Shown: one piece after another, positions 11,845 to 36,746 of the stretch
Numbering within the stretch: position 1 is the stretch's first letter
Layout of the letters: the number at the start of each line of letters is the position of its first letter
Origin: Promethearchaeota archaeon
GTDB lineage: Archaea > Asgardarchaeota > Lokiarchaeia > Sigyniarchaeales > SOKP01
DNA: 64,000 nt
Assembly (NCBI GenBank): GCA_019058295.1
Contig: JAHPZI010000018.1
Location: forward strand, 9,478-73,477
Direction: 5' to 3'
Translations under genes and position numbers: made by a program
Notes under the pieces: model-generated
What the model saw: only the letters and a program-made list of their open reading frames with translations
Told to the model about the DNA's origin: nothing
The model's database searches: none

Positions 11845-11970
11845 TATAAAATTATTAAATCTATATTAATTGAGACTAATAATAATTATAGATTATAATA
11901 TGCTAAAAGTTAATTGATTAAAAAAAATATAATTCTCAATAATTAAAGTTATTTACATCAAGAATGAAAT

Positions 11971-12888
11971 ATGATCTTTGTAGAAAAATTAATTGAACTA
12001 ATCAAAGAGAAGAAAAGTGTTGTTTGTATGGGGCTTGATCCCCGAATGGACGACAGAGGGCAAATTCCTAAGTACTTAGTTGATGATCTTAATGAACCAA
12101 ACGAAATTATCACAGAATTCAATAAAACCTTAATTGATAATGCATACGATTTAATCCCAATTATTAAACCTCAAATTGCCTTCTATGAAAAATATGAAGC
12201 ATTAAGCGCTTTAAAAGAAACTATAAACTATGCTCATAAAAAAGACTTATTAGTAATTTTAGATTCTAAGAGAAATGATATTGGATCAACTTCTGAAGCA
12301 TATGCTCATTCTAATTTTAAAGTATATGGTGCTGATGCTTGCACTGTAAATGCTTATTTTGGAATTGATGGCGTCCAACCTTTTTTGGACTATAAAGATA
12401 AAGGCGTATTTATTCTCGTAAAGACTTCAAATCCAAGCAGTCGAGAATTTCAAAATATTTTTAGTGCTGAGATAAGAGGCATTCCTGATACTCAAATTGA
12501 GATGATTGCAAAAGAGATAAAATTAGAGCGAAATTATATCTATATGGCAAGATTGGTGAATAAATGGGGTAAAAATTTAACAGATTTTTCCGGATATCAT
12601 AATCTTGGTGTAGTTGTTGGTGCTACTTATCCTGATGAATTAAAACAAATCAGAGAGATACTAAAAAATTCATTTATTTTAATTCCTGGGTATGGTGCTC
12701 AAGGGGCTCAAGCAAAAGATATTAAATATGGTTTTAATGATGATGGTTTAGGGGGAATTGTAAATTCATCACGAAAAATAATGTTTGCTTACCACTATAG
12801 GAAAATAAAACCAACAGAGTATGCTAAGGCTGCAAGAGAAGAAATTATTGATATGAACATAAAAATAAATAAAGAAATAGGAATCTAA
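11971..12888 (+). CDS. pyrF: Orotidine-5'-phosphate decarboxylase
   Basis: CMGLDP, KPQIAFYE, LDSKRNDIGST, VVGATYP, LIPGYGAQG, VNSSR. Confidence 0.96.
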   Translation: MIFVEKLIELIKEKKSVVCMGLDPRMDDRGQIPKYLVDDLNEPNEIITEFNKTLIDNAYDLIPIIKPQIAFYEKYEALSALKETINYAHKKDLLVILDSKRNDIGSTSEAYAHSNFKVYGADACTVNAYFGIDGVQPFLDYKDKGVFILVKTSNPSSREFQNIFSAEIRGIPDTQIEMIAKEIKLERNYIYMARLVNKWGKNLTDFSGYHNLGVVVGATYPDELKQIREILKNSFILIPGYGAQGAQAKDIKYGFNDDGLGGIVNSSRKIMFAYHYRKIKPTEYAKAAREEIIDMNIKINKEIGI

Positions 12889-16181: not shown

Positions 16182-16505
16182 TTATAATTTGAATTCCTTA
16201 TTTAATATATTGATGACGATGGCGTGTTCTTCTTCATCTAAGTCTTTTAAATCCCTAGACTGATTATATTCAATAAAAAGTTCTTTTGTATTTTTTTCTT
16301 TGTTTTTATTTTTTAATTCTGCTCCACATTTTTGGCAGAATTTGCTAAAGCCACGATTTTTTGAATGACATATAGGGCAAGAAATTATCATACTTTTCTT
16401 TTTAAAATCTTCTACCAAATTCTCAAAACGTTCTCGATAGTATTCTTTTGGACTCTTACCCCTCAACTCCTCAATTCCGGTTATCCAATTTATTTTTGCT
16501 TCCAT
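16182..16505 (-). CDS. Zinc-ribbon protein
   Basis: CPICHSKNRGFSKFCQKCG; GAGGTGA RBS upstream. Confidence 0.75.
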   Translation of the reverse strand: MEAKINWITGIEELRGKSPKEYYRERFENLVEDFKKKSMIISCPICHSKNRGFSKFCQKCGAELKNKNKEKNTKELFIEYNQSRDLKDLDEEEHAIVINILNKEFKL

Positions 16506-18395: not shown

Positions 18396-18451
18396 GTGAT
18401 TTTTTTTTTATATCTCTAGTTCTTAAAAACATAATAAAAGGTCGATGATAT

Positions 18452-19981
18452 ATCAAGCTTGTAGTAAAGAAAATCAATTTTGAAACTGGCACCACTAAGG
18501 ATGTTATCATTAATGCTAATGATGCGAAAAAACTCAATTTAAAAGCTGGAGATCGTATTAATATAAAAAATCCTGAATCTAAGTCTATAGATGACAAATA
18601 TCGCGTTGCAATTATACAGATTGCTTATTCAGATTCTATTGTAGCTCCGGGTGAAATTGGCATTTTCATAGATACTATTAAAGAGATTCAAAATAATACG
18701 GAAGTTTCAATACGGCCAATAGATCCTCCAGATTCCTTTAAATTCATAAAGAAAAAAATTAATGGATTAAAATTAACTAGTGAGGAAATTAATAGGATCA
18801 TTTCAGATTCAGTTTCAGGTCATCTTTCTCCAATTGAATTAGCTTCATTTATTACAGGTGTTTCTATAAATGGTATGGATAACGAAGAGATGACAGCTTT
18901 GACTCTAGCAGAAACTAAAAGTGGAAATACCTTTGATTTTGGTCCTGAAGTCTATGATAAACATTCAACAGGCGGAGTCCCCGGTAATAAAGTTAGTCTA
19001 ATTATCGTTCCAATTGTTGCTACTGCTGGGTTGACTATTCCCAAGACAAGTACTCGTGCAATTACATCACCGTCGGGAACTGCTGATAGTATGGAAGCGT
19101 TGGCACCTGTTGCTTTTGATTCAGAGGAGTTAAAGAAAATTGTTTCTAAATTAAAAGCTTGCATTGTCTGGGGGGGTGCTCTTGATTTGGCTCCAGCAGA
19201 TAATATCATGATTGAAATCGAACGACCACTGCGGATGGATCCATTCGGTTTGATGATTCCCTCTATATTGACGAAAAAGCTATCTGTTGGCGTAAAAAAA
19301 ATAGTCTTAGATATTCCAGTTGGACCAGGGACAAAATTTACGACCCCCAACGATGGAAAGAAATTCGCTCATTTGTTTAAAGAAATAGCTAAAAATGTTG
19401 GTCTTGAGGCAGAATGTGCGCTAACTTTAGCCCATCAACCTATTGGTCATAGTATTGGACCTGCAATTGAAGCTAAGGAAGCCTTAACTTTGCTTAGAGA
19501 TTATAATGCGGGTCCTAATTCCTTAATTGAAAAATCAACTTCTTTAGCGGGAATAATTCTTGAAATGGGGGGAAAAGCGGAAAAAGGACAGGGTCAAAGT
19601 TTAGCAAAGGAGATCCTGCGATCCGGGAAGGCTTACGAAAAAATGAAGCAAATTATTGAAGTTCAGGGAGGTGATCCCAACATTCTGCCTGAAGATATTA
19701 AATTAGGGACTTATGAGAGAGAATTTTACTCCACTAAGGAAGGACATATTACAGATGTAAACAACGCAATTATCAATCAAATAGCTAAAGCAGCTGGCTG
19801 TCCAAATTCAAAAACTTCTGGTGTATATATCTTTAAGAAACAAGGAGCTAGAGTTAAAGAAGGGGAAATAATTTTCAAGGTCTATTCGAACAGTCAATCC
19901 AATTTGAAAAGGGCAGAAAAAATTTATAATTCCACAGGCGGACCTGTTATCCTAGGTGGAATGATAATTGAGACGATTTAA
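18452..19981 (+). CDS. deoA: AMP phosphorylase (archaeal thymidine phosphorylase family), ~509 aa, apparent ATC start
   Basis: DKHSTGGVPGNK, PKTSTRAITSPSGTAD motifs. The frame is open from 18449, giving the expected N-domain IKLVVKKINFETG..IINANDAKKLNLKAGDRI; the track start at 18875 truncates it. Confidence 0.92.
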   Translation: MKLVVKKINFETGTTKDVIINANDAKKLNLKAGDRINIKNPESKSIDDKYRVAIIQIAYSDSIVAPGEIGIFIDTIKEIQNNTEVSIRPIDPPDSFKFIKKKINGLKLTSEEINRIISDSVSGHLSPIELASFITGVSINGMDNEEMTALTLAETKSGNTFDFGPEVYDKHSTGGVPGNKVSLIIVPIVATAGLTIPKTSTRAITSPSGTADSMEALAPVAFDSEELKKIVSKLKACIVWGGALDLAPADNIMIEIERPLRMDPFGLMIPSILTKKLSVGVKKIVLDIPVGPGTKFTTPNDGKKFAHLFKEIAKNVGLEAECALTLAHQPIGHSIGPAIEAKEALTLLRDYNAGPNSLIEKSTSLAGIILEMGGKAEKGQGQSLAKEILRSGKAYEKMKQIIEVQGGDPNILPEDIKLGTYEREFYSTKEGHITDVNNAIINQIAKAAGCPNSKTSGVYIFKKQGARVKEGEIIFKVYSNSQSNLKRAEKIYNSTGGPVILGGMIIETI

Positions 19982-20007: not shown

Positions 20008-21423
20008 TTATTCACTCAAAAGACCAAATCTTTTAAGACCTTCCCTCATTTCGGCTTGAAATGGACCCGGAGTTCCTTTTATGAATGCTTCAATAATATC
20101 TTGATCTTCTATCCTATTTGAGGAACGCTTTTTAGCCTTTTCCTCTGCAAGAGAAGAAATAGCCATCCTTGCCATGGATTGAAATGCCGGAGGGGATAAT
20201 TGTATAAGCTCCTCAAAGACATTTGCAGTTTCAGGATCCCAGTCTAATCCCTTTTTTGTTTCTTCACTAGGCTCAGAAAGATTAAGCCCAAATTCACGAC
20301 TTGTAATGATGTTTTTTAAATATTCCCTTAAGGACTGAACATAACGTGGAGATTTTTCTTGATCAAGAACCACTGCTTTTTTTGCCCATTCTTTACAATA
20401 GTTACAGTCATCGCACATTGCTACACAATCTTGCTTTTTAAAGAAGTCGATAAAGCCATCTAGTTTGGTGTTGTCAATATATAATTTAGATTTTGATTCT
20501 TTTCCAATAGTTTTAGTTATTCCTATATTAGGATCTTTCTCTTCCAATCCACCGTGAGACATCGAAAATCCTTGAATAATATCAACAAGATTACCTTCAT
20601 ATTTTCGTGATGAAAAAGCTTTTACAGACCTTAGGATCCAATCAGTGGTCATACGCCTTCCCGCGATTTTAAAATCAGTAATCCCAATCTCTTCATAGTG
20701 AACTAAATCTTCTGGACGAACCCAACGACATTTCAATACTTCTTCTGGTGTAGAAAATTTAATGATACTACAATTGATTATACATGTATCTACATAATTA
20801 CGTTCAAATTGTTGATATGTCTGTGAAGCATGTCCTAGGGTATTATAATGATAATATCTAAAAGGACATTGATATAAACATCCATCAGTTAAAAGTAATA
20901 CGATCTTACATTTTACTGCTTTCTTTATTTTACTGAGCGTCTTAAAATCACGATTAATCATTATATCCGGAGTTATTTCATCCGCCCCAAGCATCTCATA
21001 AAATTTAGCTCGATTCACACTATTTACGTGTGAGATGGTAGAAACTCGGACTTTAAGCTTAGGAAACTGTTCTTTAATCAGCTGTATTAAAAAGGGGATA
21101 GTTACAATTACGCTATCGCTACCAATATCACTAATCCATTGAATATACTCGATAAGCTTGCTATGATAATGCGAATCATACTCAATATTGTTCATACAGG
21201 GAGCATTTAGCAAATAAGAAAATTTCATTTTTTTCTTATGTACTTTATCGATATATTCTGCTATATCTCCTTTTGAAATGTCTGGTAATAAAAATGAAGG
21301 GCGCCCTCCTCCCACTATTGAATGATTAGAAACTCCATAGAGATCTGTCACAGGATATTTAGCCAATTCTTCTATTAAGCTTAAGTCCCAATTAGTTGCA
21401 ACATAAAATTGAATTAATATCAC
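20008..21423 (-). CDS. U32-family (UbiU/UbiV-like) Fe-S protein with C-terminal PCP_red/DUF2621-like domain
   Basis: GGGRP, YLLNAPC, GCLYQCPFRYYH..HASQ..C..C, WVRPEDL, FKIAGR; additional C..C..C..C cluster; C-terminal LDWDPE...TPGPF module. Confidence 0.85.
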   Translation of the reverse strand: MILIQFYVATNWDLSLIEELAKYPVTDLYGVSNHSIVGGGRPSFLLPDISKGDIAEYIDKVHKKKMKFSYLLNAPCMNNIEYDSHYHSKLIEYIQWISDIGSDSVIVTIPFLIQLIKEQFPKLKVRVSTISHVNSVNRAKFYEMLGADEITPDIMINRDFKTLSKIKKAVKCKIVLLLTDGCLYQCPFRYYHYNTLGHASQTYQQFERNYVDTCIINCSIIKFSTPEEVLKCRWVRPEDLVHYEEIGITDFKIAGRRMTTDWILRSVKAFSSRKYEGNLVDIIQGFSMSHGGLEEKDPNIGITKTIGKESKSKLYIDNTKLDGFIDFFKKQDCVAMCDDCNYCKEWAKKAVVLDQEKSPRYVQSLREYLKNIITSREFGLNLSEPSEETKKGLDWDPETANVFEELIQLSPPAFQSMARMAISSLAEEKAKKRSSNRIEDQDIIEAFIKGTPGPFQAEMREGLKRFGLLSE

Positions 21424-21522
21424 CTATTATTTTGGGTTATTTTTTGTTTATGTACATTTTTTTTCTTATTTAATACTTAAATAAAAATATTTTAGATTTA
21501 GATTATTTTCTTTTTAGCTTTT

Positions 21523-23559
21523 TCATTTATTTGCTATTTCATGAGCTTTTGCGTTAAGCGGTAATAAAGGTGCACATGCCATAAGTTTATTAACATCTCC
21601 TTCTACGATATATGTTCCTGCCATCGTTGCTTGAATCGGATCTGACTCTCCCGAATTAACCTTTTGGATGGTGGCAAAATCCGTTTTATGAATAATTTTT
21701 GGGGCGTCAGGTCCTGAATATTCACCCATCCCCCAATCCATCTTATCTTTATCAACAAATTGCCAGTAATTCATTTCAGGTTTATCACTTATATTATATT
21801 GAAAGATTAATGGAGCAATAGGTTCTAATAAAGGCTTTAAATCCGGCAATTCATTATAAGCTTTCATGAAACGCATAAGATATGCTTCCCATTCTTCCTT
21901 TGTATCCAATTTAATTATCACCTCCTTTAATTTTTGTTTTTCGTCTAATTTAGATTCTTTATTTACTTCTCCCACCTTTTTTACCTTCTGAGAGATGAGT
22001 TCAGTACTTAACGGGAGAGATGTTATATATTCAATCTCATCTCCCGTCATATATTGATTTATATTAATATTCTTTTTAATTAAAAAATCGATATAATCAT
22101 GTTTAAACGGTTGAGGAACTAATTCAATTATTATAGCTATCAATAAATCCTTAGTTACCCTCTTTAATTCTTGCTTTTCTGCAGTTCTTTCTGCAGTAAA
22201 TCCAATTCCCTTGGTTGCAGCCTCATGCATCTCTCTGGGAATTAGGTCCATTACTTCTTTCAAAAATTTTTTTGCATCATTATCCCAAGGAATCCCAAAA
22301 TATGTTCCTATTTCGGCTGATTTAACAGGACTTTTAAGTTTTCGCTCTTCTTTGGATAAAAACATATCTCCTGTATTTAGATATTTTAAGAGATATGCCA
22401 TATATTCCTTATATGATTCTGTAATTCCTCCTTCAGGTTGAGAATAAGCTATTTTTGTTAGACTATGACAATAAAAACATGTGATTCCACAAGTTTCTAC
22501 GCATCTAGCACCTCTATGTGGCATATTTTCAATGAATGTAGTCAGCTTGTTCCCATCTAATACTGCATCAAATTCGGGCACGCTTAACAGTAGACTTTGG
22601 TTATCCGTGTCAGTTCCCATTTTAACTTGCCTAGCGGAAAATTCATTGAATTGATTACCAGCTAAAATTAACGGATCAGATTCGAATGAATAACCATTAA
22701 AAATTTTACCGAGGTTACCATTGGAATTCTTATAACTATAAGCTTTTAATGCATTAAATAACCATTTGGTCCCATATCTCCTTCCAGATATCTTAAAATA
22801 ATCAATACCAATCTCAATATATTTATCAAGATCTGCTGGTTGAATCCATTTAGACATTACTATCTGTTCTTGATTAAAACATTTTTGATTCTGACAGGCA
22901 ATAGTAGCCCAATCATTATAATATCCTTCTAAACAATCATGGGTTTGGCTTGCGTGGGAGCATTCAGTATAATGAAAAAAACGAAAAGGGCATTCATTAA
23001 GACAGCAATCGTTAGTCAATAATTCTATATCACACTTTACTGCTTTTCTAATTTCTTCTAAAAGGGGAAAATTACGATTAAGCATTATAGATAAAGTCAA
23101 TACACCATCAGTACCAATTATTTCTTCCCATTCCAAAGCCCGGGTAAGAGAATTGACTTCAGCTATTACAGAAACCTTTAATTTTAATTTAGGATGATAG
23201 GTTTTAGCAAATTGAGCGAGATAAGGATCTGTAACTGTTAAATATTCTACGCCCAAATCATCTAACCAGTCTAATTCGTATAGTGCTTTTGTTTGTTCTT
23301 TGGAATTAAATTTATAATATCCAAGACACTCACCATTCCATAGCCATGTAAATTTGAAATTTAAATCATGAACTTTATTAATAAATTTTTCAATTTCAGC
23401 TTTATCTCGTTTAGCCATTAAAAAAAAGGGTCGCCCAGATCCAGTGAAACTCATGTCGGAAGCGCCATAAAAATCATTTATAGTTTTCATTAAATGATTA
23501 TCATTTTCTATGAGAGTCAATAAATCTATTTTCCAATTGCATGCTAATGATATTCTCAA
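21523..23559 (-). CDS. U32-family protein fused to PCP_red/DUF2621-like domain and C-terminal SCP2 lipid-binding domain
   Basis: GSGRP, CCLNECPFRFFH..HASQ, WIQPADL, FKISGR; internal IPWDND..VPQPF module; C-terminus SGESDPIQATMAGTYIVEGD typical of SCP2. Confidence 0.85.
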   Translation of the reverse strand: MRISLACNWKIDLLTLIENDNHLMKTINDFYGASDMSFTGSGRPFFLMAKRDKAEIEKFINKVHDLNFKFTWLWNGECLGYYKFNSKEQTKALYELDWLDDLGVEYLTVTDPYLAQFAKTYHPKLKLKVSVIAEVNSLTRALEWEEIIGTDGVLTLSIMLNRNFPLLEEIRKAVKCDIELLTNDCCLNECPFRFFHYTECSHASQTHDCLEGYYNDWATIACQNQKCFNQEQIVMSKWIQPADLDKYIEIGIDYFKISGRRYGTKWLFNALKAYSYKNSNGNLGKIFNGYSFESDPLILAGNQFNEFSARQVKMGTDTDNQSLLLSVPEFDAVLDGNKLTTFIENMPHRGARCVETCGITCFYCHSLTKIAYSQPEGGITESYKEYMAYLLKYLNTGDMFLSKEERKLKSPVKSAEIGTYFGIPWDNDAKKFLKEVMDLIPREMHEAATKGIGFTAERTAEKQELKRVTKDLLIAIIIELVPQPFKHDYIDFLIKKNININQYMTGDEIEYITSLPLSTELISQKVKKVGEVNKESKLDEKQKLKEVIIKLDTKEEWEAYLMRFMKAYNELPDLKPLLEPIAPLIFQYNISDKPEMNYWQFVDKDKMDWGMGEYSGPDAPKIIHKTDFATIQKVNSGESDPIQATMAGTYIVEGDVNKLMACAPLLPLNAKAHEIANK

Positions 23560-23563
23560 AATT

Positions 23564-24715
23564 TCACCTCTGTATTACTCCATTTTCCATAATTTTCATT
23601 TTTTCATCTATTAATCTTAAGATTTTAGCTTTCTCTTCTGCATTTCCATTCCTTAGCTTTTTGGAAAATTCAATGCAATAATTATTTATTTCCTTTTCTG
23701 AAGGATAGTGAGAATCATAAGAGTAATTATTGCAAAATTCATTAACAATTTCAGATTTCAACTCAAATAGAGAATTTTTAACATTATCATAAGGCCAGAA
23801 TTCACCATAAGGTTGAGGAATATTGATAAATTCATTAAAGTTAACTTTTAATTCTCTTTGGGTGTAGCTTCTAATTATTTCAATTATTTTTTTAGAAGTA
23901 AATCCCCCAGTATATAGAGAAAATGTATTATATCCAAGATCTTCATACAATTTTATATTACTTGGTGAAATCCATCCAGCTTTCAAGAGATTTTCAGGTT
24001 TCTCTAACCTTTTTTTCCAGCAGTAGAGTAGTGGGTAATCAAACTCATCTTCAACATCGGATAATTCTTCTTGATTTGAAAAAACAGGGGAACCTATTGT
24101 TCTATGACTTTGTAAGTTATGATGTTGATACCAATGAATACACCCCCAATTACACCCAATATTCAATGGTAAGATATAATCAAGATCTTCAGATCCTTTA
24201 AATTTGTTCTTAAGCTTAATAAAATTTTCTAATACTTTAAAATATCTCAAGATATCAGGATTTAAAATAATAATATCAGCACCAATTTCAAAAAAGATTT
24301 TCCCACGATTTAATGAAGTGACACATTGTGAATATGATAAGTAAATTTTCATCATTGGAGCATTTTCTTTAAAAAATCCAATATTATTTGGAGATGATAA
24401 TAATACATCTTTGTATCCCAACTTCTTTAAATTTTGAATTAAATCTTTTGTAGCTCTATATTGTTGAAAATGAGCTTCTAAATTCCCTTGACAAGTTGAA
24501 TCCAAACCTGCTATTGGAATTATTCCGTTTTCTTGAATTATTTTAGTATATTCTTCAAATTCTTTAATTGATGGGAGATTTCTTGGAAGAAATATTGAAC
24601 TATTCCCAATAGGATTTTGTGGCACGTGAACAATAATATGACTAACTGGTAATTTCTCTTTATTAATAAGAGCAATTAAATCCTTATGATAATCTCCATC
24701 AATTATAAATTTTAT
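23564..24715 (-). CDS. Divergent U32-family protein (apparent ATA start at 24715)
   Basis: LNIGCNWGCIHWYQHH, GWISPSNI; frame open 30 codons upstream of the track start, giving IKFIIDGDYHKDLI, which parallels the N-termini of the two adjacent U32 paralogs. Confidence 0.72.
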   Translation of the reverse strand: MKFIIDGDYHKDLIALINKEKLPVSHIIVHVPQNPIGNSSIFLPRNLPSIKEFEEYTKIIQENGIIPIAGLDSTCQGNLEAHFQQYRATKDLIQNLKKLGYKDVLLSSPNNIGFFKENAPMMKIYLSYSQCVTSLNRGKIFFEIGADIIILNPDILRYFKVLENFIKLKNKFKGSEDLDYILPLNIGCNWGCIHWYQHHNLQSHRTIGSPVFSNQEELSDVEDEFDYPLLYCWKKRLEKPENLLKAGWISPSNIKLYEDLGYNTFSLYTGGFTSKKIIEIIRSYTQRELKVNFNEFINIPQPYGEFWPYDNVKNSLFELKSEIVNEFCNNYSYDSHYPSEKEINNYCIEFSKKLRNGNAEEKAKILRLIDEKMKIMENGVIQR

Positions 24716-24757
24716 TCTAAAATCACTTTTTCTGTTTTTATCTTTTTAAAAAAAAAT

Positions 24758-25930
24758 TTAATTATAAGATTCAAGTCCCGCCTTACAACCCATTGATAAA
24801 AAGTCTACCATCGTGCCGTTATAATCGTTCTCAATCTTGTAATAAAATCCTTTTTGAGAGAATGTAGCGCCCCAAATAAATTTCTTAGAATCGCTTTGGA
24901 GAGGTGTTTTTTCTATGAAATCCCTCATTAAAGGATGAAGATGGGAAGGAACTTCTTTTGGATAATCACATGTGATCCCAAAACATAGTCGCTCGATTTT
25001 ATTTGAATCCCAACTAAAAGTATAGTTAAGATGTGCTGCTTTACGACATCCCTCCATCACCTCTTTGGACGCAGGCTCGAATCCTAGATCTTTCACCAGT
25101 GAAACGCAACTCTCATAAGAAGACTCAGCTGGTTGTTTAAGCATGAAATAAATATTAGTCGTATTATGAAGGAAATCGAATGCAAAAAGACTAAATGAGG
25201 TTAATCCATGCTTATTGAAGTAATCCTTATATGCGTTCATACTCTCTGGAATTGATTTCATGGAATAAATTGGATCAATTGAACCGGGCACAACAAATGG
25301 CCAAATTTTTGATAACCCAGTTTCTGCATCAACATCTACTCCATATCCCATTATCTCGAATGAATTTATAGCTTCAACAATCATTTTATGGATAGGATGT
25401 CCATTTTTTTCTAGTAATCCTTCATTAATTGCAGTTGTATATGGGTCTGGATTATGAGGGATAAAAAATTCAACATATCTTACCGCTACATCTCTTTTTC
25501 CAATGGGTTTAGCGGTGGTTCTTATGGATACGGGAGCTCCTCTAAAAAACTTTTCATAAGTATTAAAGGATTTCCAAATTGCATCCTTATTACATTTTAC
25601 ACCAGCGATATCGCAAATTTTAGCCATATCTTCAACCATTTTATTAAGATCGGTATTACATTTAAAATCACTTTTCACTTTAGCCATATATCTATCATAG
25701 TCCACTCCAAGTTTAGTTAAGTCCTCAATCATTGTTGGTTGAAATGCAGGTGGCGTTACTTCAAACAACGCAACTACTAAATCAACTTCTGCGACTTCTG
25801 TTCCACTTCTTTCCATACATTTTTTTTCTGCTCCTTCGAGGAGTGCAGGTTTTACGGCGGGGCGTACCATCTCAGGTACTCCTAATAACACTTTTTCAAA
25901 AAGTTGTTTTACTTCTGGTTGCCATTCCAT
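24758..25930 (-). CDS. ABBA-family aromatic prenyltransferase (NphB/CloQ-like) with N-terminal PCP_red/DUF2621-like domain
   Basis: DPYTTAINEGLLEKNGHPI, YGVDVDAETGLSKIW, DFLHNTTNIYF, YTFSWDSNKIERLCF, YYKIENDY match NphB/CloQ-type motifs. Confidence 0.85.
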   Translation of the reverse strand: MEWQPEVKQLFEKVLLGVPEMVRPAVKPALLEGAEKKCMERSGTEVAEVDLVVALFEVTPPAFQPTMIEDLTKLGVDYDRYMAKVKSDFKCNTDLNKMVEDMAKICDIAGVKCNKDAIWKSFNTYEKFFRGAPVSIRTTAKPIGKRDVAVRYVEFFIPHNPDPYTTAINEGLLEKNGHPIHKMIVEAINSFEIMGYGVDVDAETGLSKIWPFVVPGSIDPIYSMKSIPESMNAYKDYFNKHGLTSFSLFAFDFLHNTTNIYFMLKQPAESSYESCVSLVKDLGFEPASKEVMEGCRKAAHLNYTFSWDSNKIERLCFGITCDYPKEVPSHLHPLMRDFIEKTPLQSDSKKFIWGATFSQKGFYYKIENDYNGTMVDFLSMGCKAGLESYN

Positions 25931-25969
25931 TATGTTCTACCTCTTTTTTTTTTTTATTTTTTTTTTTAT

Positions 25970-27394
25970 TTATTGTAAATATTTAGCAAATTGAACTTGG
26001 CTCATTTCTGCAAATCCCTCTGGATTATTAAAACCAAGCCCAGGCATCATCCATCTTGGATTTGATTCCCCATACTTTCTTACTATTTGAAATAGATCTA
26101 CTTCCTTGATTTTTGGGGAAATATAAAATTTAGGTTTTAAGAGATTTTCTCCTTTTTGGATAACCCCTTCTTCTTCAGCAATTTGCTGAAGAATTGTATG
26201 AGGATAAATTCTCATACCTATAAAGATGATTACATCTCCATCGCCTTGCCATAAATTTCCTTGATAACTCTCCATAGTCTCAAGTCGATCTAAAGAAACT
26301 TGGATTGTTTCTAGAGTTTCTCCTGGACCTCCAACAATAACATGCAATAATTGCTCAATTTCCAAATCTATACACTTCTTTGACGTAAGAATCGCGTCAT
26401 CTGGAGATCTCGATTTATTCATATTTTTTAACATCTCTTCTGAGAGAGATTCGATACCAGTTGCAAAATGAACCGCACCACTCTCTTTCATGAGAGGCAT
26501 TAAATCTATAAATTTTTTGTTGGGGACATAATTTACGCCCCAGTTTAGGGCTATTTTATTATTAATTATTTCTTGACAGGTATTTTTTACGTGATTATAA
26601 TCCAAATTGAAAACACTGTCCACGATAAATATATTTTTAATTCCGTAATTATTTACAATTAAATCGAGTTCTTTAGCAATATTTCCGGGGGATCTATATC
26701 GAACATTAGAATCCTCAATATACCTATAACTACAGTAAATGCATTTCATAGGACAACCACGTTTAGTTTGAATATTACCCCAAACTGGACCTGATTTATT
26801 CATTGGATCTATAAGATAGGCATCATTTTCCAGCAATTCCCTTGTTGGTATTGGGAGATCATCTAGATTCTCAACCCGCCAAGGTGGTTTATGATGATAT
26901 TTTCCTTTTTGATCTATAAAACAAATACCCTTCTCAATTGTTCTAGGATCGTCATCGTTTTCAATCTTTTTTAAAAATTCCGCAAAGACATATTCACCAT
27001 CCCCAATTACCCCTATATTATGATTTAAATCTCTAAGAATTTCCTCTGAAAAAATTGAAAAACCAGCACCTCCTAACACAATTGGAATTTCCGGTTCTAC
27101 AAGTTCTTTAATATATAAAATAATATTTTTTACTGGTAAGTAAAAGAATAGATTTCCCGGGTATGTTGTTGAGTCAACATTACGAATTGAAATCCCTATT
27201 AAATGAGGATTAAAATCATAAATTACTTTTGAAACATCTTTTTTATAATCATTACTAAGAGTTAAATCAAGCAATTTAACCTCATGACCTTGACTAAGAA
27301 GGTAAGCTGCAAGATATGCTTCTCCTAAGGGAGGGACCATAACATGAACAATCTCCCTACTCCCAGAGATTATTAATACACGCAATTTAATCAC
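25970..27394 (-). CDS. Cobalamin-binding radical SAM protein (TsrM-like / 'lipid biosynthesis B12-rSAM' subfamily)
   Basis: PPLGEAYLAA, GISIRNVD, IQTKRGCPMKCIYC, DSVFN, GGPGET, GMRIYP, LLKPKFYISP. Confidence 0.88.
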   Translation of the reverse strand: MIKLRVLIISGSREIVHVMVPPLGEAYLAAYLLSQGHEVKLLDLTLSNDYKKDVSKVIYDFNPHLIGISIRNVDSTTYPGNLFFYLPVKNIILYIKELVEPEIPIVLGGAGFSIFSEEILRDLNHNIGVIGDGEYVFAEFLKKIENDDDPRTIEKGICFIDQKGKYHHKPPWRVENLDDLPIPTRELLENDAYLIDPMNKSGPVWGNIQTKRGCPMKCIYCSYRYIEDSNVRYRSPGNIAKELDLIVNNYGIKNIFIVDSVFNLDYNHVKNTCQEIINNKIALNWGVNYVPNKKFIDLMPLMKESGAVHFATGIESLSEEMLKNMNKSRSPDDAILTSKKCIDLEIEQLLHVIVGGPGETLETIQVSLDRLETMESYQGNLWQGDGDVIIFIGMRIYPHTILQQIAEEEGVIQKGENLLKPKFYISPKIKEVDLFQIVRKYGESNPRWMMPGLGFNNPEGFAEMSQVQFAKYLQ

Positions 27395-27417
27395 TCTTAG
27401 TCTTTACAAATTTAATT

Positions 27418-28830
27418 TCATTCAATTAATTCGATTTCTTCTTCAATTTCTTCTTTTTGAGAAACATCAACTTCATGTTCATGATCATTTTCATGCCAGC
27501 AGAACGGAAACGATCCAAAGAAATCACCCGTGATATATTCCGCAGTTACACGACATCCCCCACCGCAATATTTTAAATGATGGCAAGAGGCACATTTTCC
27601 TTTAATCTTCTTTCTATCACGAATATCCCTGTAGAGCTGTGAATTTAATACATCTTCAAAATCATCCTCCAATGCATTACCAAGAGTCAATGTTGTAGGA
27701 TATCCCGCAGGGAATATTGTTCCATCTATACCAATTCCCATCATTGTCCTACAAGCTAAACAACCTACTCCCCATTCAATCGCTGCCAATTCTTTATCAT
27801 TTTTTGGATGTTCCATAAAGGGCATCATATCATATATTTCATAAGCAGGTAATGTACCTGCCTTACCTTTCCTTATCGTCTCAATAGCATGTTTGTATTT
27901 GAAATCATACATTTTTTTATATTCTTCTGAATTAAGACCGATTTCATCCCAAAATTCAGCAGCCCGATTTTGTTTCACTACACATCGAAAATATGGTTGT
28001 GATCCCCATTTTTCTGATAATATTTTAATCTCTTCTAATTCATCAATGTTTTGCTTCATAATTGTAATTGAAGAGCATACAAATATTCCATATTTCAAAC
28101 AAAGATCTATTGCTTTCTTAGCATAATCTAAGGAATTGGGAAACCCACGAATCTCATCATTTTTCTTAGGATCAACACTGTCAAAACTAACAAATATATG
28201 ACTAATATTGTTATCTTTACACATTTTGGCGAAATCTTCATCGAATCTCACTCCATTGGTGATAAGAGCGTGAATATAATCCTTCTCTTTACAAAATCTC
28301 ATAATCTCACCAATGTCTTTTCTCAAAGTGGGCTCACCACCAAACCATATAAAGCAGGCATGTCTTCCTTGTTTTCGCAAACCTGTTTCAACATTTTCTA
28401 TTATTTGACACCATTTCTCTGCTGATAATTCTGGCCGTGCTATTTGATCATCCGCAGCACAGTGAATACATTTTTGATTACATTTGTCAGTCAAATACAT
28501 GGCAAAGTGTATATTTCCGGGATGAAACCCCCGCTCTAGTTTTTGCCATGAAACCTTCAATCGATCCTTGATTTCCTTCAGTTCTATATAACGTTCGACA
28601 TCAATTCCTAATTTTGTTAAATCTTCTACCATTATTGATTTAAATGCTTCAGGAATTATGTCAAAAATACCCAGAACAACATCAGCATCATTAATATAAG
28701 CAGCATTCCGATCAAGACATCTTTTTTCTGCAGCCTCTATGATTAATGGTTTCACGGAAGGACGAAATCCTTGTGGCATTTGTTCTACTATTCTACCAAA
28801 TAATTTCTGTGTCTCCTTTTCCCATTCCAT
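27418..28830 (-). CDS. Radical SAM/SPASM protein with N-terminal PCP_red/DUF2621-like domain
   Basis: CNQKCIHC, GGEP, TNG; SPASM GCLAC..KCASC..CGGGCR..PFCW. Confidence 0.9.
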   Translation of the reverse strand: MEWEKETQKLFGRIVEQMPQGFRPSVKPLIIEAAEKRCLDRNAAYINDADVVLGIFDIIPEAFKSIMVEDLTKLGIDVERYIELKEIKDRLKVSWQKLERGFHPGNIHFAMYLTDKCNQKCIHCAADDQIARPELSAEKWCQIIENVETGLRKQGRHACFIWFGGEPTLRKDIGEIMRFCKEKDYIHALITNGVRFDEDFAKMCKDNNISHIFVSFDSVDPKKNDEIRGFPNSLDYAKKAIDLCLKYGIFVCSSITIMKQNIDELEEIKILSEKWGSQPYFRCVVKQNRAAEFWDEIGLNSEEYKKMYDFKYKHAIETIRKGKAGTLPAYEIYDMMPFMEHPKNDKELAAIEWGVGCLACRTMMGIGIDGTIFPAGYPTTLTLGNALEDDFEDVLNSQLYRDIRDRKKIKGKCASCHHLKYCGGGCRVTAEYITGDFFGSFPFCWHENDHEHEVDVSQKEEIEEEIELIE

Positions 28831-28842
28831 AGAATTTCACCT

Positions 28843-30210
28843 TTAAGCACAATTATCATGCTCATGGTCATCATCATGCCAACAAAACGGGAGCTCAGCT
28901 AGAAAATCACCAGTTACGGTTTCAGCATGGACCCTACAACCCCCACCACATAAGTCAAGATGATGACAAGTAGAGCATTTCCCTTTTATTTTTCGATCTC
29001 TAATTTTTTTAAACATTTCGGTTTCCATAATTTCATCCCAACTTTGCTCAAGAATGTTGCCTAAGATTAAATCAGAAGGATAATCACAAGGGAATACATC
29101 TCCATTGGTATCAATCCCAGAAATTGAGCGGCAAGCTTGGCATCCTGTGCCCCATTCGATCGCAGTCCTTTCTTCATCATTTACAGGACACTCCATAAAT
29201 GGCACCATATCCCATGTATAGAATTTATTAAGCGATGAAGCTTCTCCTTTTCTGATAGCTTCTATAGCATGTTTATATTTGAAATCATAGAATTGTCGAT
29301 ATTCATCCATATTTAAGCCAATTTCGTCCCAATTTAAATCGGCCGAACGTTGTTTGATCAGGGGTCTGTAAAAGGGAGTTACTCCTCTAGAGTTAAAATA
29401 TTCCCTTAATTTATCTAATTCATCAAAGTTCTCTTTTTGTGCAGTTACATTAGCAATTGTAAAAAGTCCATATTTTGCAGCTAAATCTAACGCTTTTTCC
29501 CCTGCTTCGTATGCTTTTGGGTGCCCTCTAATTTTTGCAGCCCGTTTGGGATCTGTACTATCATAACTAATAAAAACATGGCTCATTTTAGCATCTGCGC
29601 ATATTTTCGCCAATTCATCATTAAATAAAATTCCATTGGTCGCAAGTGATTGATAATAACCCTTCTCACCGCAATATTTAATTAAATCTTTAAGATCTTT
29701 ACGAATTGTAGGCTCCCCGCCAAACCATATATAACATCCTCGACGACCACGTTTTCGTAAGCTTTGTTCAAGATCCTCAATAATTTCAATCCATGTTTCA
29801 ATGGGTAATTCTGGACGTTTATCCATTACCGAAGCAGCACAATGAAGACAATTTTGATTGCATCGGTCAGTGAGATATATAGTAAAATGATAAACCCCGG
29901 GTAAAAAGGCACCACTAATTTCATCCCATGTACGTGCATATTTTGTTCTAATTTCTGATAATTTTACATAGCGATCTGTATCAATATCTAATTTTTTTAA
30001 ATCTTCGACTACTGCTGGTTGAAATGCCTCGGGTGTTATCTCAAATAGTGCAGAAAGCAAATCATCTTCACTTACAAATCCAGAATTCCTAAGTCGTGCT
30101 GTTTTTTCAGCAGCTTCTCGCAACATAGGCTTAACAGAAGCACGAAATGCCTCAGGTACTTGATCTGTGATTTTTCCAAACATTTGTTCCATTTCTATAT
30201 TCCATTCCAT
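28843..30210 (-). CDS. Radical SAM/SPASM protein with N-terminal PCP_red/DUF2621-like domain (paralog of 27418..28830)
   Basis: CNQNCLHC, GGEP, TNG; SPASM GCQAC..FPCD..KCSTC..CGGGCR..PFCW. Confidence 0.9.
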   Translation of the reverse strand: MEWNIEMEQMFGKITDQVPEAFRASVKPMLREAAEKTARLRNSGFVSEDDLLSALFEITPEAFQPAVVEDLKKLDIDTDRYVKLSEIRTKYARTWDEISGAFLPGVYHFTIYLTDRCNQNCLHCAASVMDKRPELPIETWIEIIEDLEQSLRKRGRRGCYIWFGGEPTIRKDLKDLIKYCGEKGYYQSLATNGILFNDELAKICADAKMSHVFISYDSTDPKRAAKIRGHPKAYEAGEKALDLAAKYGLFTIANVTAQKENFDELDKLREYFNSRGVTPFYRPLIKQRSADLNWDEIGLNMDEYRQFYDFKYKHAIEAIRKGEASSLNKFYTWDMVPFMECPVNDEERTAIEWGTGCQACRSISGIDTNGDVFPCDYPSDLILGNILEQSWDEIMETEMFKKIRDRKIKGKCSTCHHLDLCGGGCRVHAETVTGDFLAELPFCWHDDDHEHDNCA

Positions 30211-30318: not shown

Positions 30319-31002
30319 TCATTTTTTTCCCCCCTCCCGTATAAAATGTTTATTAAAATCAGCAAAATTATTAATTTTGGGATGGCAATAATGATTGATT
30401 AAACGAAAAATCAAAAAACTTTCAAAATCAGAATGATAACAGAATACTTTGAGATTATTGTAGCGATTATTTAATATATACTTGGTTTTTCTATGCAAAA
30501 TTCTGTTTTGAATAAAATTAATTCTATAAATTTTTCTTCTCAAATTGTCATTAAAATTATGAATTCTCTCATTTAAGCTATAATCTCTTTTATTTCGATC
30601 TCCTTTATTCTTATTATCGAGATATTCTATCGATTCATCATTTAGTCCAAGAGAACCCAAACTTATATAAAAAAATATTTTTGTATCTTCATTTAAGAAT
30701 GCATTTTTAACATAATGATAAAAAGCCGTATCAATATAACAAATGATATTATAAATTATGATGATGTCAATCAAATGACCGAGGCTAAACTGGATTGTGT
30801 GAGATTCGTGAGGCAAAAATCCTAATATATTGATGTAAGGTAAAATAGGAATGAAAATTGACTTGCCAGAGGTAATATATTCAGTTAATAAAGAAGAAAA
30901 AACTGGAACATCTCTTAAAAACATGAAAATGAACAAGCTCGTGAGATAAGAAAAAATAACGCTAAAGATCAAGACTATTTTCAAAATTTTAAGTTTATGC
31001 AC
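30319..31002 (-). CDS. Hypothetical membrane-anchored protein
   Basis: Hydrophobic N-terminal segments, GAGGA RBS before GTG; no motif recognised. Confidence 0.45.
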   Translation of the reverse strand: MHKLKILKIVLIFSVIFSYLTSLFIFMFLRDVPVFSSLLTEYITSGKSIFIPILPYINILGFLPHESHTIQFSLGHLIDIIIIYNIICYIDTAFYHYVKNAFLNEDTKIFFYISLGSLGLNDESIEYLDNKNKGDRNKRDYSLNERIHNFNDNLRRKIYRINFIQNRILHRKTKYILNNRYNNLKVFCYHSDFESFLIFRLINHYCHPKINNFADFNKHFIREGGKK

Positions 31003-31130: not shown

Positions 31131-32621
31131 TTATTTATCTCTCTTTTTAGGATATTTCGAACTAGATGTTAGAAGCATAGGTGCAGTGCTTAAAAATAAT
31201 AGCATGTTTGCATAACGAATAAAACCTCCAGAAAAATGTTTCTTATCATAGTTAATTACATTATAAAAATAGGATGGTTTAGTTCGCTTGAAAATGTTAA
31301 CAATCTGCGGAAAAGAATTAAATTTTAGTTTTATTTTAAATTTTTCAGGAGATTCATGGGCAGGAGAACCAGGGAAAATATGATAAGGTTCACTCATAAT
31401 TGTAATTGGTTTGAAATTGGAATTACCATATTTTAAAAGGCATTTAGTCGCAAAATGAAAATCCTTAAGAATATCAAACCGATTTTGGAAAGGAAGACCG
31501 ATAGTTAACCATATCCGTAATAATATTTGAGATAAATTTGCATTTTTTATTAAATCATTAATTTGACTTTCTGGAAATTTAAATGTTGGATCACAAGTTT
31601 TAGCTATTTTTTGCTGAACTTTAGCTGATAATGTTCGAGGAGAAATACTGATTGATGAATATCTACGAGCAAAAGTCTTCTCAAAGATTCTCCACATTTC
31701 TTTAGGAAAGGGTAGCCGCCATATCTCTAAATCTCCACTAATATCAATTTTTTCCTTTTGAATCAGCCCAAATAATTTTTTCCAATATTTTAAATTAGCA
31801 GGATATGTACCATGTCCGAAAAAGACACTTGGAACTTTATAATTGTCGAGAATATTGTGGAGATCTTCTATTATTTTTTCTGGACTTCTGAGAACGACCT
31901 CATTTCGACCCGTTAGTTTTTGCTGAGCTCTTTGACCTCCTCCACAAAAAGGACAATTAAATGGACAGCCCCTTCCAATTGGAAGATTGAGAGAGATTCC
32001 CATAATCTTTCTGCTATACTCAAGATATTGTTTTGCATTATTTAGAAGTGATACATTAATAAAATTCAAATCATCCAATGTTTTTGCTGTATAGGAAAGA
32101 GAATTAACTTTTATGTGTTTAGAGGTATCTCGATAAGATAAATTGGGAACAGAATCTAATGATTGATTTTTATTAATCTTTTGAACATATTTTAAAAATG
32201 GAACTTCCCCTTCGCCTCTAATTATACCGTCAATTTCTTTATAGTATTTTAATAGTTCACTATGGTAATATGAAGCACTAAAACCTCCAAGAATTACATT
32301 AGCATGGGGATTTACTTTTTTTACGATTCTAGCAACTTCAATAGCACCATTTGCATTATGTATCCAATGTAAATCTATTCCACATACATCAAAATTAATA
32401 TTTTTAAGAAAGTCGGCTAATGACCAATTACGATTTAGATATTGCTCTAATGGATAATTTATAATTTTAACTCCAAAACCCCCTTTCTCAAGCAAATCGG
32501 CAATGCTAAAAACACCCATTGGAATGAATAAATATTCCCCTCGTTTAAATTTGGATCTTTTATTATTAATAGGTTTTACTACTCTAGGTGGATGGATGAG
32601 TAAAACATCGTAGCTTTTCAA
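31131..32621 (-). CDS. Cobalamin-binding radical SAM protein (CloN6-like N-terminus)
   Basis: DVLLIHPP, GIDLHW..A.E.A..VK, GGFSASYY, RGEGE, GRGCPFNCPFC. Confidence 0.87.
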   Translation of the reverse strand: MKSYDVLLIHPPRVVKPINNKRSKFKRGEYLFIPMGVFSIADLLEKGGFGVKIINYPLEQYLNRNWSLADFLKNINFDVCGIDLHWIHNANGAIEVARIVKKVNPHANVILGGFSASYYHSELLKYYKEIDGIIRGEGEVPFLKYVQKINKNQSLDSVPNLSYRDTSKHIKVNSLSYTAKTLDDLNFINVSLLNNAKQYLEYSRKIMGISLNLPIGRGCPFNCPFCGGGQRAQQKLTGRNEVVLRSPEKIIEDLHNILDNYKVPSVFFGHGTYPANLKYWKKLFGLIQKEKIDISGDLEIWRLPFPKEMWRIFEKTFARRYSSISISPRTLSAKVQQKIAKTCDPTFKFPESQINDLIKNANLSQILLRIWLTIGLPFQNRFDILKDFHFATKCLLKYGNSNFKPITIMSEPYHIFPGSPAHESPEKFKIKLKFNSFPQIVNIFKRTKPSYFYNVINYDKKHFSGGFIRYANMLLFLSTAPMLLTSSSKYPKKRDK

Positions 32622-35300: not shown

Positions 35301-36746
35301 ATGAAAATCAATCTTATTAATCCCGCACCTTCAAAAATAAAAGATGGCCAAACCGAAACATTGTTTTATGCTTCTGCTCCTCCATTAGGATTAATGTACC
35401 TTGCCACATATTTGAAAGATGCAGGTCATAAAATTTCTATTTTAGATCAAGCAGCTGTTAATTATGAAAATAGAGATGTTATTAATTGGGTTAAAAAGAG
35501 AAATCCAGATGTAGTAGGTTTTTCAATTTTATGCGCTTCCGTAGAGAATGCAAAATTAATATCTAAAGCATTAAAAACCCTAAATCCGAATCTAAAAATC
35601 ATTTTTGGGAATTATCTTGCTACATTCTATGCAAGAAAAATCTTAGAACATTATGATTGGGTGGATATATGTGTGAGAGGGGATGGTGAAATAACTTTCT
35701 CAGAGCTTATTGAAAAAATAGAATTGAATAAAGATCTTAATGATGTCGATGGAATAACATACAAACGTAATGGTAAAATTAAAGAGAATAAGAATCGACA
35801 GCTATTAAAAAATCTTGATACATTACCATTTCCTGACCAAAAATTGATTCCAAATGTATATAAGAATCGAATCGGTGGAATTGATGTTTCACCGCGAAAA
35901 TTTACTACGATGGTTACTTCTCGAGGATGCCCTTTTGGATGCAATTTCTGCGCATGCACAGCATTCTCTCAAGGGCTATGGAGGACTCGATCAGTAAATA
36001 ATATATTTGAAGAGATTTGTGAATTAGCTAATCAAGGTTTTCAAGAAATCCTTTTTGTTGATGATAATTTTACATTAAATACGAAAAGAATTATTAAGTT
36101 ATGTGATAAAATTAGGAAAGAAAAATTGGATATGGTATTTGTATGTGATGGAAGAGTAAACAAGAGCTCTATTGGTTTATTAAGAACCATGAAAAAAGCA
36201 AAATTTGAAATCTTAATGCTTGGATTAGAAAGTAGTTCTCAAAGAATGTTAGATTTTTATAATAAAAAAATAACACCACAGATGAGTGAAACTGCTGTGA
36301 ACAATGCCCGTAAAGCGGGTTTCAAGATGATTGTTGGTTCGTTTATGATTGGTGGATTCGATGAAACCTATACTGAGGCAATTAATACTCTTAAATTTAT
36401 TTCAAAACTTGATATTGATTTTCCTCATATAATTTTTACTCGTGCATTACCTGGAACTAAACTTTTCAATAATTTAATTCAAAATAATGTTATAGATGAA
36501 GATAAATATTGGGAAAGAGGTGTAGATCTTATTGATTTACCTGGTGCGAAAATGAAACGCGAGATAATCTATCAAATAATAAAGGAACAATTCCATAAAA
36601 ATTTCTTAAGACGAAAATATTTGATTAAAGCTTTTATACGAACAATAATGAGCAAATACAGACAAGATATGATTTTAAGTCATCTTAATTTTCATGATAT
36701 AGATAAATTTGTAAAGTTAATCAATAATCCCCCTGATTTATTTTAG
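35301..36746 (+). CDS. Cobalamin-binding radical SAM protein
   Basis: PPLGLMYLA, RGDGE, TSRGCPFGCNFC, DDNF, GLESSSQR. Confidence 0.92.
   Translation: MKINLINPAPSKIKDGQTETLFYASAPPLGLMYLATYLKDAGHKISILDQAAVNYENRDVINWVKKRNPDVVGFSILCASVENAKLISKALKTLNPNLKIIFGNYLATFYARKILEHYDWVDICVRGDGEITFSELIEKIELNKDLNDVDGITYKRNGKIKENKNRQLLKNLDTLPFPDQKLIPNVYKNRIGGIDVSPRKFTTMVTSRGCPFGCNFCACTAFSQGLWRTRSVNNIFEEICELANQGFQEILFVDDNFTLNTKRIIKLCDKIRKEKLDMVFVCDGRVNKSSIGLLRTMKKAKFEILMLGLESSSQRMLDFYNKKITPQMSETAVNNARKAGFKMIVGSFMIGGFDETYTEAINTLKFISKLDIDFPHIIFTRALPGTKLFNNLIQNNVIDEDKYWERGVDLIDLPGAKMKREIIYQIIKEQFHKNFLRRKYLIKAFIRTIMSKYRQDMILSHLNFHDIDKFVKLINNPPDLF

Follow-up and report, generated by a model that had tools for sequence, protein, structure and literature searches.

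Nine genes for U32, SCP2, ABBA prenyltransferase and radical SAM proteins in a Lokiarchaeia-class archaeon: a candidate oxygen-independent route to a prenylated aromatic lipid

UbiU and UbiV are [4Fe-4S] proteins of the U32 family which form a complex and act together with UbiT, an SCP2 protein; in Zymomonas, UbiT and UbiU have been reported as a fusion, and UbiTUV is confined to ubiquinone-producing alpha-, beta- and gamma-proteobacteria, where it is accompanied by ubiA, ubiE and ubiG (PMC6747719). All U32 oxidases characterised so far hydroxylate ring sp2 carbons (PMC11574389). Here we analyse a minus-strand operon within a 64-kb stretch of DNA (in the following, the window) from a 3.2-Mb, 79% complete assembly of a Lokiarchaeia-class Asgard archaeon, in which genes for three U32 proteins, an SCP2 domain, an ABBA-type prenyltransferase and several radical S-adenosylmethionine (SAM) enzymes are placed side by side. 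The Lokiarchaeia are an archaeal class that contains cultured relatives of eukaryotes, and, to our knowledge, O2-independent hydroxylases of the U32 family have been tied experimentally only to proteobacterial ubiquinone and to RNA bases. Our preferred, tentative reading, to which we give a little less than an even chance, is that the operon would encode an SCP2-chaperoned, O2-independent pathway to a prenylated, hydroxylated and C-methylated aromatic lipid, analogous to UbiT/U/V.

The seven minus-strand open reading frames (ORFs) at 20008-30210 of the window, from which the original prediction of such an operon started, were confirmed in the ORF listing. The co-orientation and the domain assignments hold as well (ORF list, Pfam; for g5 by profile-profile comparison only). 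What did not stand is the limit of seven genes: two co-oriented upstream genes, g8 and g9, are syntenic with the g1-g7 set in other genomes, and because they keep their position beside it there, the unit is counted here as nine genes. In order of transcription, with "module" denoting a helical segment treated below, these are:

g9: 31131..32621, minus strand, class-B (B12-binding) radical SAM protein, first gene of the unit; Pfam B12-binding and Radical_SAM
g8: 30319..31002, minus strand, small membrane protein without a family; constant core
g1: 28843..30210, minus strand, module (amino acids (aa) 1-84; nt 29959-30210), radical SAM and SPASM domains (Pfam)
g2: 27418..28830, minus strand, module (nt 28579-28830), radical SAM and SPASM domains; paralogue of g1
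g3: 25970..27394, minus strand, class-B radical SAM protein, probable C-methyltransferase, without module; Pfam B12-binding and Radical_SAM
g4: 24758..25930, minus strand, module (nt 25679-25930) and ABBA aromatic prenyltransferase barrel; PF11468
g5: 23564..24715, minus strand, divergent U32 paralogue without module and without second Cys cluster; start revised
g6: 21523..23559, minus strand, U32 core, module (aa 425-504; nt 22048-22287) and SCP2 domain (aa 548-678; nt 21526-21918)
g7 (U32c): 20008..21423, minus strand, U32 TIM barrel, CX3CX2CX2C motif and C-terminal module (nt 20011-20250); constant core

The gaps between the operon genes measure 4-128 bp; those of 4-99 bp described for the seven genes hold once the start of g5 is revised, which leaves about 42 bp between g4 and g5.

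Peptidase_U32 (PF01136; Pfam cut-off 22.4 bits) is matched by g6 with 35 bits and by g7 with 45 bits. For g5 no match was obtained in Pfam or NCBIfam; its profile, built from eleven orthologues, aligns with the g7 profile (hhalign 99.7%, E 4e-27, 358 columns), and g5 is thus a divergent U32 paralogue. Residues 1-497 of g6 are 33% identical to g7 (E 8e-74). The AlphaFold 2 (AF2) model of g7 (pLDDT 85) finds its best fold match in the Protein Data Bank (PDB) in 5D88, the U32 protein Mk0906 (E 1.4e-10, TM 0.71 by target). Five cysteines of g7 are invariant (C186, C218, C337, C340 and C343) and three near-invariant (C76, C182 and C333). Conserved counterparts of C76, C182, C186 and C218 in both g5 and g6 suggest one cluster site common to the three proteins, while a second motif, CX3CX2CX2C, is present in g6 and g7 and not in g5.

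Three canonical U32 genes (257-278 bits) are found elsewhere in the genome. A maximum-likelihood tree separates two U32 groups with a 100/100 split, one comprising E. coli TrhP, RlhA, UbiU and UbiV together with these three canonical proteins, the other g5, g6 and g7 together with bacterial homologues; UbiU and UbiV are on long branches, which makes finer placement unsafe. Alignment of the g7 and g5 profiles with single E. coli U32 sequences gave weak and uninformative scores, the best to TrhP (77%), with UbiU and UbiV at 3.6% or less. Judged by sequence, the cluster U32s are neither RNA-hydroxylase-like nor UbiU/UbiV-like and form a deep clade of their own. Hence they do not group with the RNA hydroxylases TrhP and RlhA, in agreement with the original prediction, and the affinity to UbiU and UbiV that it had entertained is not borne out, the same split setting them apart from all four E. 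coli proteins.

The likeness to UbiT/U/V thus concerns the make-up of the system. At least two different U32 proteins, putatively Fe-S proteins, lie beside an SCP2 protein; U32 and SCP2 are fused in g6, as UbiT and UbiU are in Zymomonas; one cysteine is situated far upstream of the others, as in UbiV; and the setting is anaerobic with a prenylated substrate to be expected. By analogy with UbiU-UbiV, g5 and g6 may pair as a heterodimer. In contrast to UbiT/U/V, the U32 proteins here are non-orthologous (100/100 split; no NCBIfam match; hhalign below 4%) and number three instead of two, g6 and g7 carry CX3CX2CX2C in addition, the helical module is likewise extra, and the partners are ABBA and radical SAM proteins instead of UbiA, UbiD, UbiE and UbiG. 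The parallel to UbiUVT drawn in the original prediction stands for the U32 pair and the SCP2 fusion; the proteins are not orthologous, and the present host, an archaeon, lies outside the proteobacterial range.

The prenyltransferase g4 matches PF11468 (PTase_Orf2) with 182 bits (cut-off 22; 1.6e-53) over profile positions 2-283 of 287. Sequence matches in the PDB are AmbP3 (1.9e-37), AmbP1 (1.2e-35), 4ee6 (1.6e-32), NphB (2e-26) and CloQ (3e-13); g4 aligns across the whole barrel of AmbP3, AmbP1, NphB and CloQ and is also listed as a relative of EpzP. Pfam coverage and PDB matches thus bear out the claim that g4 is a full-length PT-barrel ABBA protein. Its closest solved relatives, AmbP3 and AmbP1, take indole substrates, followed by 4ee6, deposited simply as 'Prenyltransferase', and then NphB and CloQ. 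We know of no characterised PTase_Orf2 relative that prenylates anything but an aromatic ring. Compared to the known members, which belong to polyketide, phenazine and isonitrile clusters, g4 is archaeal, is encoded within an Fe-S/radical SAM operon and carries the extra helical module of about 85 aa (N-terminal here, C-terminal in one sub-lineage). Its homologues fall into at least 120 clusters, almost all from metagenome-assembled genomes of Asgard archaea, with 55-95% identity and mostly a length of exactly 390 aa. Chorismate synthase is present in the host genome, which indicates that aromatic precursors are available.

The SCP2 domain of g6 is marginal in Pfam (21.0 bits against a cut-off of 21.3), while stand-alone and fused orthologues reach 24-25 bits and thus exceed the cut-off; the SCP2 part of g6 is 82% identical to stand-alone SCP2 genes. 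In g6 the SCP2 domain is joined to U32, and in another locus (L036) to a SPASM radical SAM enzyme; these fusions to differing enzymes point to one carrier serving several enzymes. For a predicted complex of SCP2 domain and module, ipSAE values of 0.07 and 0.06 were obtained, which is evidence neither way.

Five of the nine genes share a four-helix module of about 80 aa, N-terminal in g1, g2 and g4, internal in g6 and C-terminal in g7; in this genome it is confined to these five. All five copies match one and the same segment of DUF2621 (PF11084), positions 57-137, below the gathering score (16-26 bits, cut-off 27.7; E 1e-5 to 1e-2), and two of them weakly match PCP_red (PF08369), the C-terminal domain of protochlorophyllide reductase subunit B, which the module weakly resembles. 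It differs from DUF2621 and PCP_red in being joined here to catalytic enzymes from three families that are unrelated to one another. When 1.84 billion representative proteins were searched with its profile, 288 clusters were returned, many of which are proteins of 80-100 aa that stand by themselves. Among the 61 long hosts, U32 (14), PTase_Orf2 (13), radical SAM/SPASM (8/6) and SCP2 (3) proteins predominate, and 16 show a match to DUF2621 at E <= 1e-4. On ABBA proteins the module is C-terminal in one sub-lineage and N-terminal in others, and because its position changes with lineage we regard it as a mobile add-on travelling with this enzyme set. A differing ABBA cluster with methyltransferases, an ABC exporter and a terpene-cyclase-like gene has a single copy of the module. 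Separately encoded copies were also observed beside the cluster (L034:17605-17805, L090:12875-13069, L113:9744-9989). The module could provide a common handle for the five enzymes g1, g2, g4, g6 and g7.

Both g1 and g2 contain Radical_SAM and SPASM domains in Pfam, with CX3CX2C and a CX2CX5CX3C SPASM motif in the sequence, and are 50% identical to one another (hhalign E 2e-175). They share the radical SAM core and full SPASM domain with AhbD, AhbC and NirJ, their best NCBIfam matches, but reach only 136-139 bits against a cut-off of 500, i.e. about a quarter, and carry the module as an N-terminal addition; similarity to the tetraether synthase Tes is restricted to the radical SAM core (about 58-62 bits). 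For g3, the B12-binding and radical SAM architecture is shared with its top NCBIfam matches, TIGR04072 ('lipid biosynthesis B12-binding/radical SAM'; 261 bits, cut-off 360) and BzaD (195 bits, cut-off 450), and the match to TsrM is weak (89 bits). The nearest family of g9, in which CX3CX2C is present, is TIGR04190 (248 bits, cut-off 500); as a possible family of ring synthases for glycerol dialkyl glycerol tetraethers (GDGTs) it is uninformative, since no control genome scores above its cut-off. Thus g3 and g9 have a class-B radical SAM architecture below every equivalog cut-off, and g3 is a probable C-methyltransferase; the TsrM-like methylation of sp2 carbons and the replacement of UbiE earlier attributed to g3 go beyond these sub-threshold matches. 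For g8 no match was found in Pfam or NCBIfam, a feature search of the protein atlas gave nothing usable and a structural search returned generic helical matches alone (TM <= 0.5). In its AF2 model (mean pLDDT 75) a pair of long hydrophobic helices precedes a long cytoplasmic one, and among 37 distinct orthologues few residues are invariant (Y42, G46, S48, F50, P52, G75, L77 and D79).

To evaluate the co-conservation of these genes, 400 genomes of the phylum were surveyed, 90 of them of high quality. U32c (g7) occurs in 45 of the 400, all within six families of one class, in 15 of the 90 high-quality genomes and, for example, in 7 of 54 and 13 of 42 genomes of two genera. A full ABBA gene is present in about 32 genomes (about 70% of the cluster bearers), the remaining matches of the ABBA search being to the shared module only. 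Comparison of twenty 20-kb loci and of further loci from species-representative genomes showed that synteny is kept in more than 30 loci, with g9 upstream of g8-g1 in most of them, and that the sub-blocks ABBA-g5-g6(SCP2) or ABBA-SCP2-g7 are never split. The ABBA gene is always directly followed by an SCP2-bearing gene, and the g5 and g6 pair is found solely behind ABBA, with g5 immediately next to it. The gene set is therefore co-conserved in other genomes, as the original prediction supposed, albeit patchily and within one class. Such patchiness, even within genera, is more in keeping with an accessory metabolite than with a core electron carrier of the membrane. The sequencing runs listed were all metagenomic DNA, from sediment, soil and other sources, with no RNA run among them.

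Four versions of the cluster were seen. Apart from the full version, which is the layout of this window, there is a short version with a stand-alone 130-aa SCP2 gene in place of g5 and g6, a second paralogous layout, g1-ABBA-g5-g6-g2, and a minimal version lacking ABBA, which reads g9-g8-g1-SCP2-g7 in L051 (from a 100% complete genome) and L087, and g8-SCP2-g7-g3-module in L090. The constant core is thus g8, SCP2 and U32c. Both flanks of L087 and L090 are the same as those of this window, so that one chromosomal site holds cassettes of differing content. In L036 the cluster is expanded (288-2851; 11135-12655), with the radical SAM-SPASM-SCP2 fusion and extra SCP2 genes, and ends in an FAD_binding_4 oxidase and an HdrD/GlcF-like CCG Fe-S protein. 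A gene for a LuxE-like acyl-protein synthetase adjoins the cluster in L033 (16920-18236), the module is fused elsewhere to a LuxC acyl-CoA reductase, and AMP-binding and GH3 adenylating enzymes lie near bacterial U32c homologues; these associations hint that the substrate may carry a carboxylate.

Outside the Asgard archaea the U32c clade has few members, and their contexts are few and heterogeneous. Polyangiaceae and Deferrimicrobium contigs show the same order around the U32c homologue: radical SAM (PA0069-like), methyltransferase, TrpD-like enzyme, U32, class-B radical SAM, Tes-like radical SAM (300 bits), UbiA and squalene-hopene cyclase, the latter fused to MacB/FtsX (L122:6519-18835, L123:2652-9569). 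On a Thermodesulfobacteriota contig the homologue is surrounded by genes for MMPL, LolA-like, GT28-type glycosyltransferase, CrtI/HpnE-like oxidase, IspH, squalene/phytoene synthase and polyprenyl synthase. The U32c-like gene at L114:4655-5845, in a carotenoid/squalene-type cluster of a Thermodesulfobacteriota contig, shares 58-63% identity with a Promethearchaeota subfamily that bears the module (P0274-P0278), which suggests interdomain transfer or mis-binning. Another metagenomic contig carries four class-B radical SAM genes, GH3, U32 and two SPASM radical SAM genes, and in P0319 a U32c-like gene stands alone without the cluster and is uninformative. What the bacterial contexts have in common is isoprenoid/lipid chemistry alongside class-B radical SAM enzymes; an aromatic ring is not shared among them. 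Toward Tes and its relatives, the locus is thus connected by these bacterial neighbours (Tes-like radical SAM, UbiA, class-B radical SAM) and by the host, which has a Tes gene; within this operon there is none.

In the window, the operon diverges from a plus-strand operon encoding a CDP-alcohol phosphatidyltransferase (CDP-OH_P_transf), a family 2 glycosyltransferase (GT2) and three BchE/HpnJ-like class-B radical SAM proteins, and these neighbours recur beside the cluster in many genomes. Farther out, further glycan genes follow, as well as two additional genes for class-B radical SAM proteins. Seven class-B radical SAM genes thereby lie in 24 kb (25970-49120), interleaved with the CDP-alcohol phosphatidyltransferase, two GT2, a hexapeptide transferase and a polysaccharide deacetylase. 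Besides g3 and g9 they are:

35301-36746, class-B radical SAM gene
36775-38280, class-B radical SAM gene
38301-39740, class-B radical SAM gene
44528-46006, class-B radical SAM gene
47666-49120, class-B radical SAM gene

Genes for repeated small proteins that begin with a zinc ribbon (Zn_Ribbon_1/DUF7575) are scattered over the island at 16182-16505, 39796-40383, 41060-41662 and 47003-47635, and relatives of them follow the cluster in L033. The Tes tetraether synthase of the host genome scores 478 bits, above the cut-off; Tes and a second Tes-like gene are located at G000:C22:140586-142145 and C13:16872-18464 (order as listed), the second matching in two pieces within one stop-free 574-aa frame, with about 80 bases skipped as a possible short insertion. 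The AMP phosphorylase gene beside g7 was ruled out as a member of the unit, being a convergent housekeeping gene (480 bits), and so was the Glycos_transf_3 gene of the bacterial cluster as its counterpart, since this is TrpD-like. As regards the start of g5, its frame is open and conserved for about 30 codons (about 90 bp) 5' of the listed GTG, to about 24715, and orthologue alignment and frame inspection make an ATA/ATT-type codon the likely start. In both g5 (24626-24715) and the AMP phosphorylase (18449-18874), conserved sequence coding for the N terminus extends 5' of the first ATG, GTG or TTG, and the two proteins would start with 'IK...' from an ATA or ATT codon, which reflects either non-canonical starts in this genome or truncation by the gene caller.

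For the prenyl-aromatic pathway, we infer the chemical steps, their order and the nature of the product as follows. The soluble g4 would join a prenyl diphosphate to an aromatic acceptor, and the SCP2 domain of g6 would take up the prenylated product, which the U32 proteins as putative Fe-S enzymes, g5 and g6 as a pair together with g7, would hydroxylate without O2. Subsequently, g3 and perhaps g9 would C-methylate the lipid, g1 and g2 could catalyse additional radical reactions (oxidative decarboxylation, dehydrogenation or C-C bond formation, for example), and g8 may connect the system with the membrane. A lipid-soluble accessory metabolite, namely a lipid of phenolic or quinol type, is a more probable product than a respiratory quinone of universal occurrence.

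Several observations weigh against this pathway. In about 14 of the 45 U32c genomes no ABBA gene could be detected, and these include several of 93-100% completeness such as G206 (100%) and G173 (98%). As ABBA-less versions occupy the same chromosomal site, the core chemistry would be independent of the ABBA step, and the bacterial members of the U32c clade occur in isoprenoid-lipid contexts without an ABBA gene. No acceptor-forming enzyme, be it polyketide, chorismate-utilising or similar, is found among the operon genes, and a CM_2 chorismate mutase, for supply of the prephenate on which ring hydroxylation by UbiT/U/V depends, was not found in the 79%-complete genome. Moreover, the cluster U32s show neither an NCBIfam match nor any specific kinship to UbiU/UbiV, and their cysteine spacing, CX3C plus one far-upstream Cys, departs from the CX6CX15CX3/4C pattern usual for the [4Fe-4S] site of U32 proteins (PMC6747719). 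Of the O2-independent prenyl-aromatic operon put forward originally, the co-conserved set and the ABBA barrel therefore hold, while the need for an aromatic ring is weakened by the ABBA-less cores and the isoprenoid contexts.

The ABBA-less cores and the bacterial contexts speak for the main alternative, which we consider possible but less likely, namely that the operon tailors an isoprenoid membrane lipid, the candidates being ether lipids or GDGTs, polyprenols and carotenoid-like chains. Here, U32c would hydroxylate without O2, class-B radical SAM enzymes would methylate, SPASM enzymes would cross-link or desaturate and SCP2 would extract the lipid, with ABBA being optional; the GT2 and the CDP-alcohol phosphatidyltransferase encoded next to the operon may then attach a sugar or phospho head group to the hydroxyl thus created. 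The constancy of g8, SCP2 and U32c with or without ABBA fits this well, as do the recurrent divergent operon of CDP-OH_P_transf, GT2 and three class-B radical SAM genes, the proximity of g3 to a 'lipid biosynthesis' family and the fact that the genome makes tetraethers, as its Tes indicates. The bacterial contexts cut both ways: squalene-hopene cyclase, UbiA and the Tes-like enzyme in Polyangiaceae and Deferrimicrobium and the squalene/phytoene and polyprenyl synthases in Thermodesulfobacteriota speak for a purely isoprenoid substrate, but these contexts are few and heterogeneous, and the TrpD-like enzyme with UbiA in the Polyangiaceae cluster would suit an aromatic-prenyl product. Counting for an aromatic acceptor, ABBA is present in most cluster genomes and rigidly linked to the SCP2 and U32 genes, the characterised PTase_Orf2 relatives all prenylate aromatic rings, and the characterised U32 oxidases act on ring sp2 carbons, not on aliphatic chains (PMC11574389).

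That the product is a respiratory or redox quinone-like carrier of membrane electron transport appears improbable. Prenylation, up to three anaerobic hydroxylations, C-methylation and SCP2 match the logic of quinone assembly, and the L036 cluster ends in the oxidase and Fe-S protein described above; the patchiness within genera (15 of 90 high-quality genomes; 7 of 54, 13 of 42), however, argues against such a role, no quinone-dependent complex is linked to the cluster (no search aimed at partner enzymes was made), and 0 of 60 loci from species-representative genomes bear the name of a cultured strain. The novel membrane electron carrier of the original prediction is thus unsupported. Very improbable, in our view, is a cluster for a ribosomally synthesised and post-translationally modified peptide (RiPP), in which SPASM, B12 radical SAM and ABBA-fold enzymes would modify a ribosomal peptide whose leader is read by the module. 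All three enzyme types do occur in RiPP pathways, weak NCBIfam similarity to several peptide maturases is seen, and a domain common to several tailoring enzymes recalls the RiPP recognition element (RRE); but there is no conserved short ORF, the gaps being small, Pfam finds no PqqD/RRE, protease or exporter gene in the operon, RiPP pathways as known make no use of an SCP2 domain or of three U32 proteins, the radical SAM proteins match best to small-molecule enzymes (AhbD/NirJ; BzaD/TIGR04072), and the module, all-helical and resembling PCP_red/DUF2621, lacks the winged-helix form. Tailoring of a tetrapyrrole or other cofactor, suggested by AhbD, NirJ and AhbC as top matches of g1 and g2 and by the weak PCP_red likeness of the module, is scarcely credible given a score of 136 against a cut-off of 500, an ALAD (porphobilinogen synthase) not found in the 79%-complete genome, and the presence of ABBA, SCP2 and U32 proteins, which do not fit.

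Our literature search found no paper describing the cluster, which agrees with the original statement that no described pathway has this gene set, nor any on U32, SCP2 and radical SAM in archaea, on Asgard aromatic prenyltransferases (for ABBA and archaea, reviews only) or, among relevant ones, on DUF2621/PCP_red. The boldest version of the prenyl-aromatic pathway holds that some Lokiarchaeia make a novel redox-active prenyl-aromatic lipid without O2, by a U32/SCP2 system independent of UbiTUV and an assembly gathered through an 80-aa adaptor. We judge this combination unlikely by a wide measure; if true, membrane electron transport or redox-lipid chemistry would exist in organisms regarded as living by fermentation or syntrophy alone. 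The new deep U32 clade, found with SCP2, ABBA and radical SAM genes in Asgard archaea and in isoprenoid-lipid clusters in bacteria, extends the probable scope of anaerobic hydroxylation to metabolites soluble in lipid. The module, nearly confined to these enzyme families, may represent a new way to organise a soluble pathway around a greasy substrate. In summary, the cluster provides a testable gene set for an Asgard lipid or cofactor and, with many orphan archaeal compounds known from sediment lipidomics, is a candidate source for some of them.

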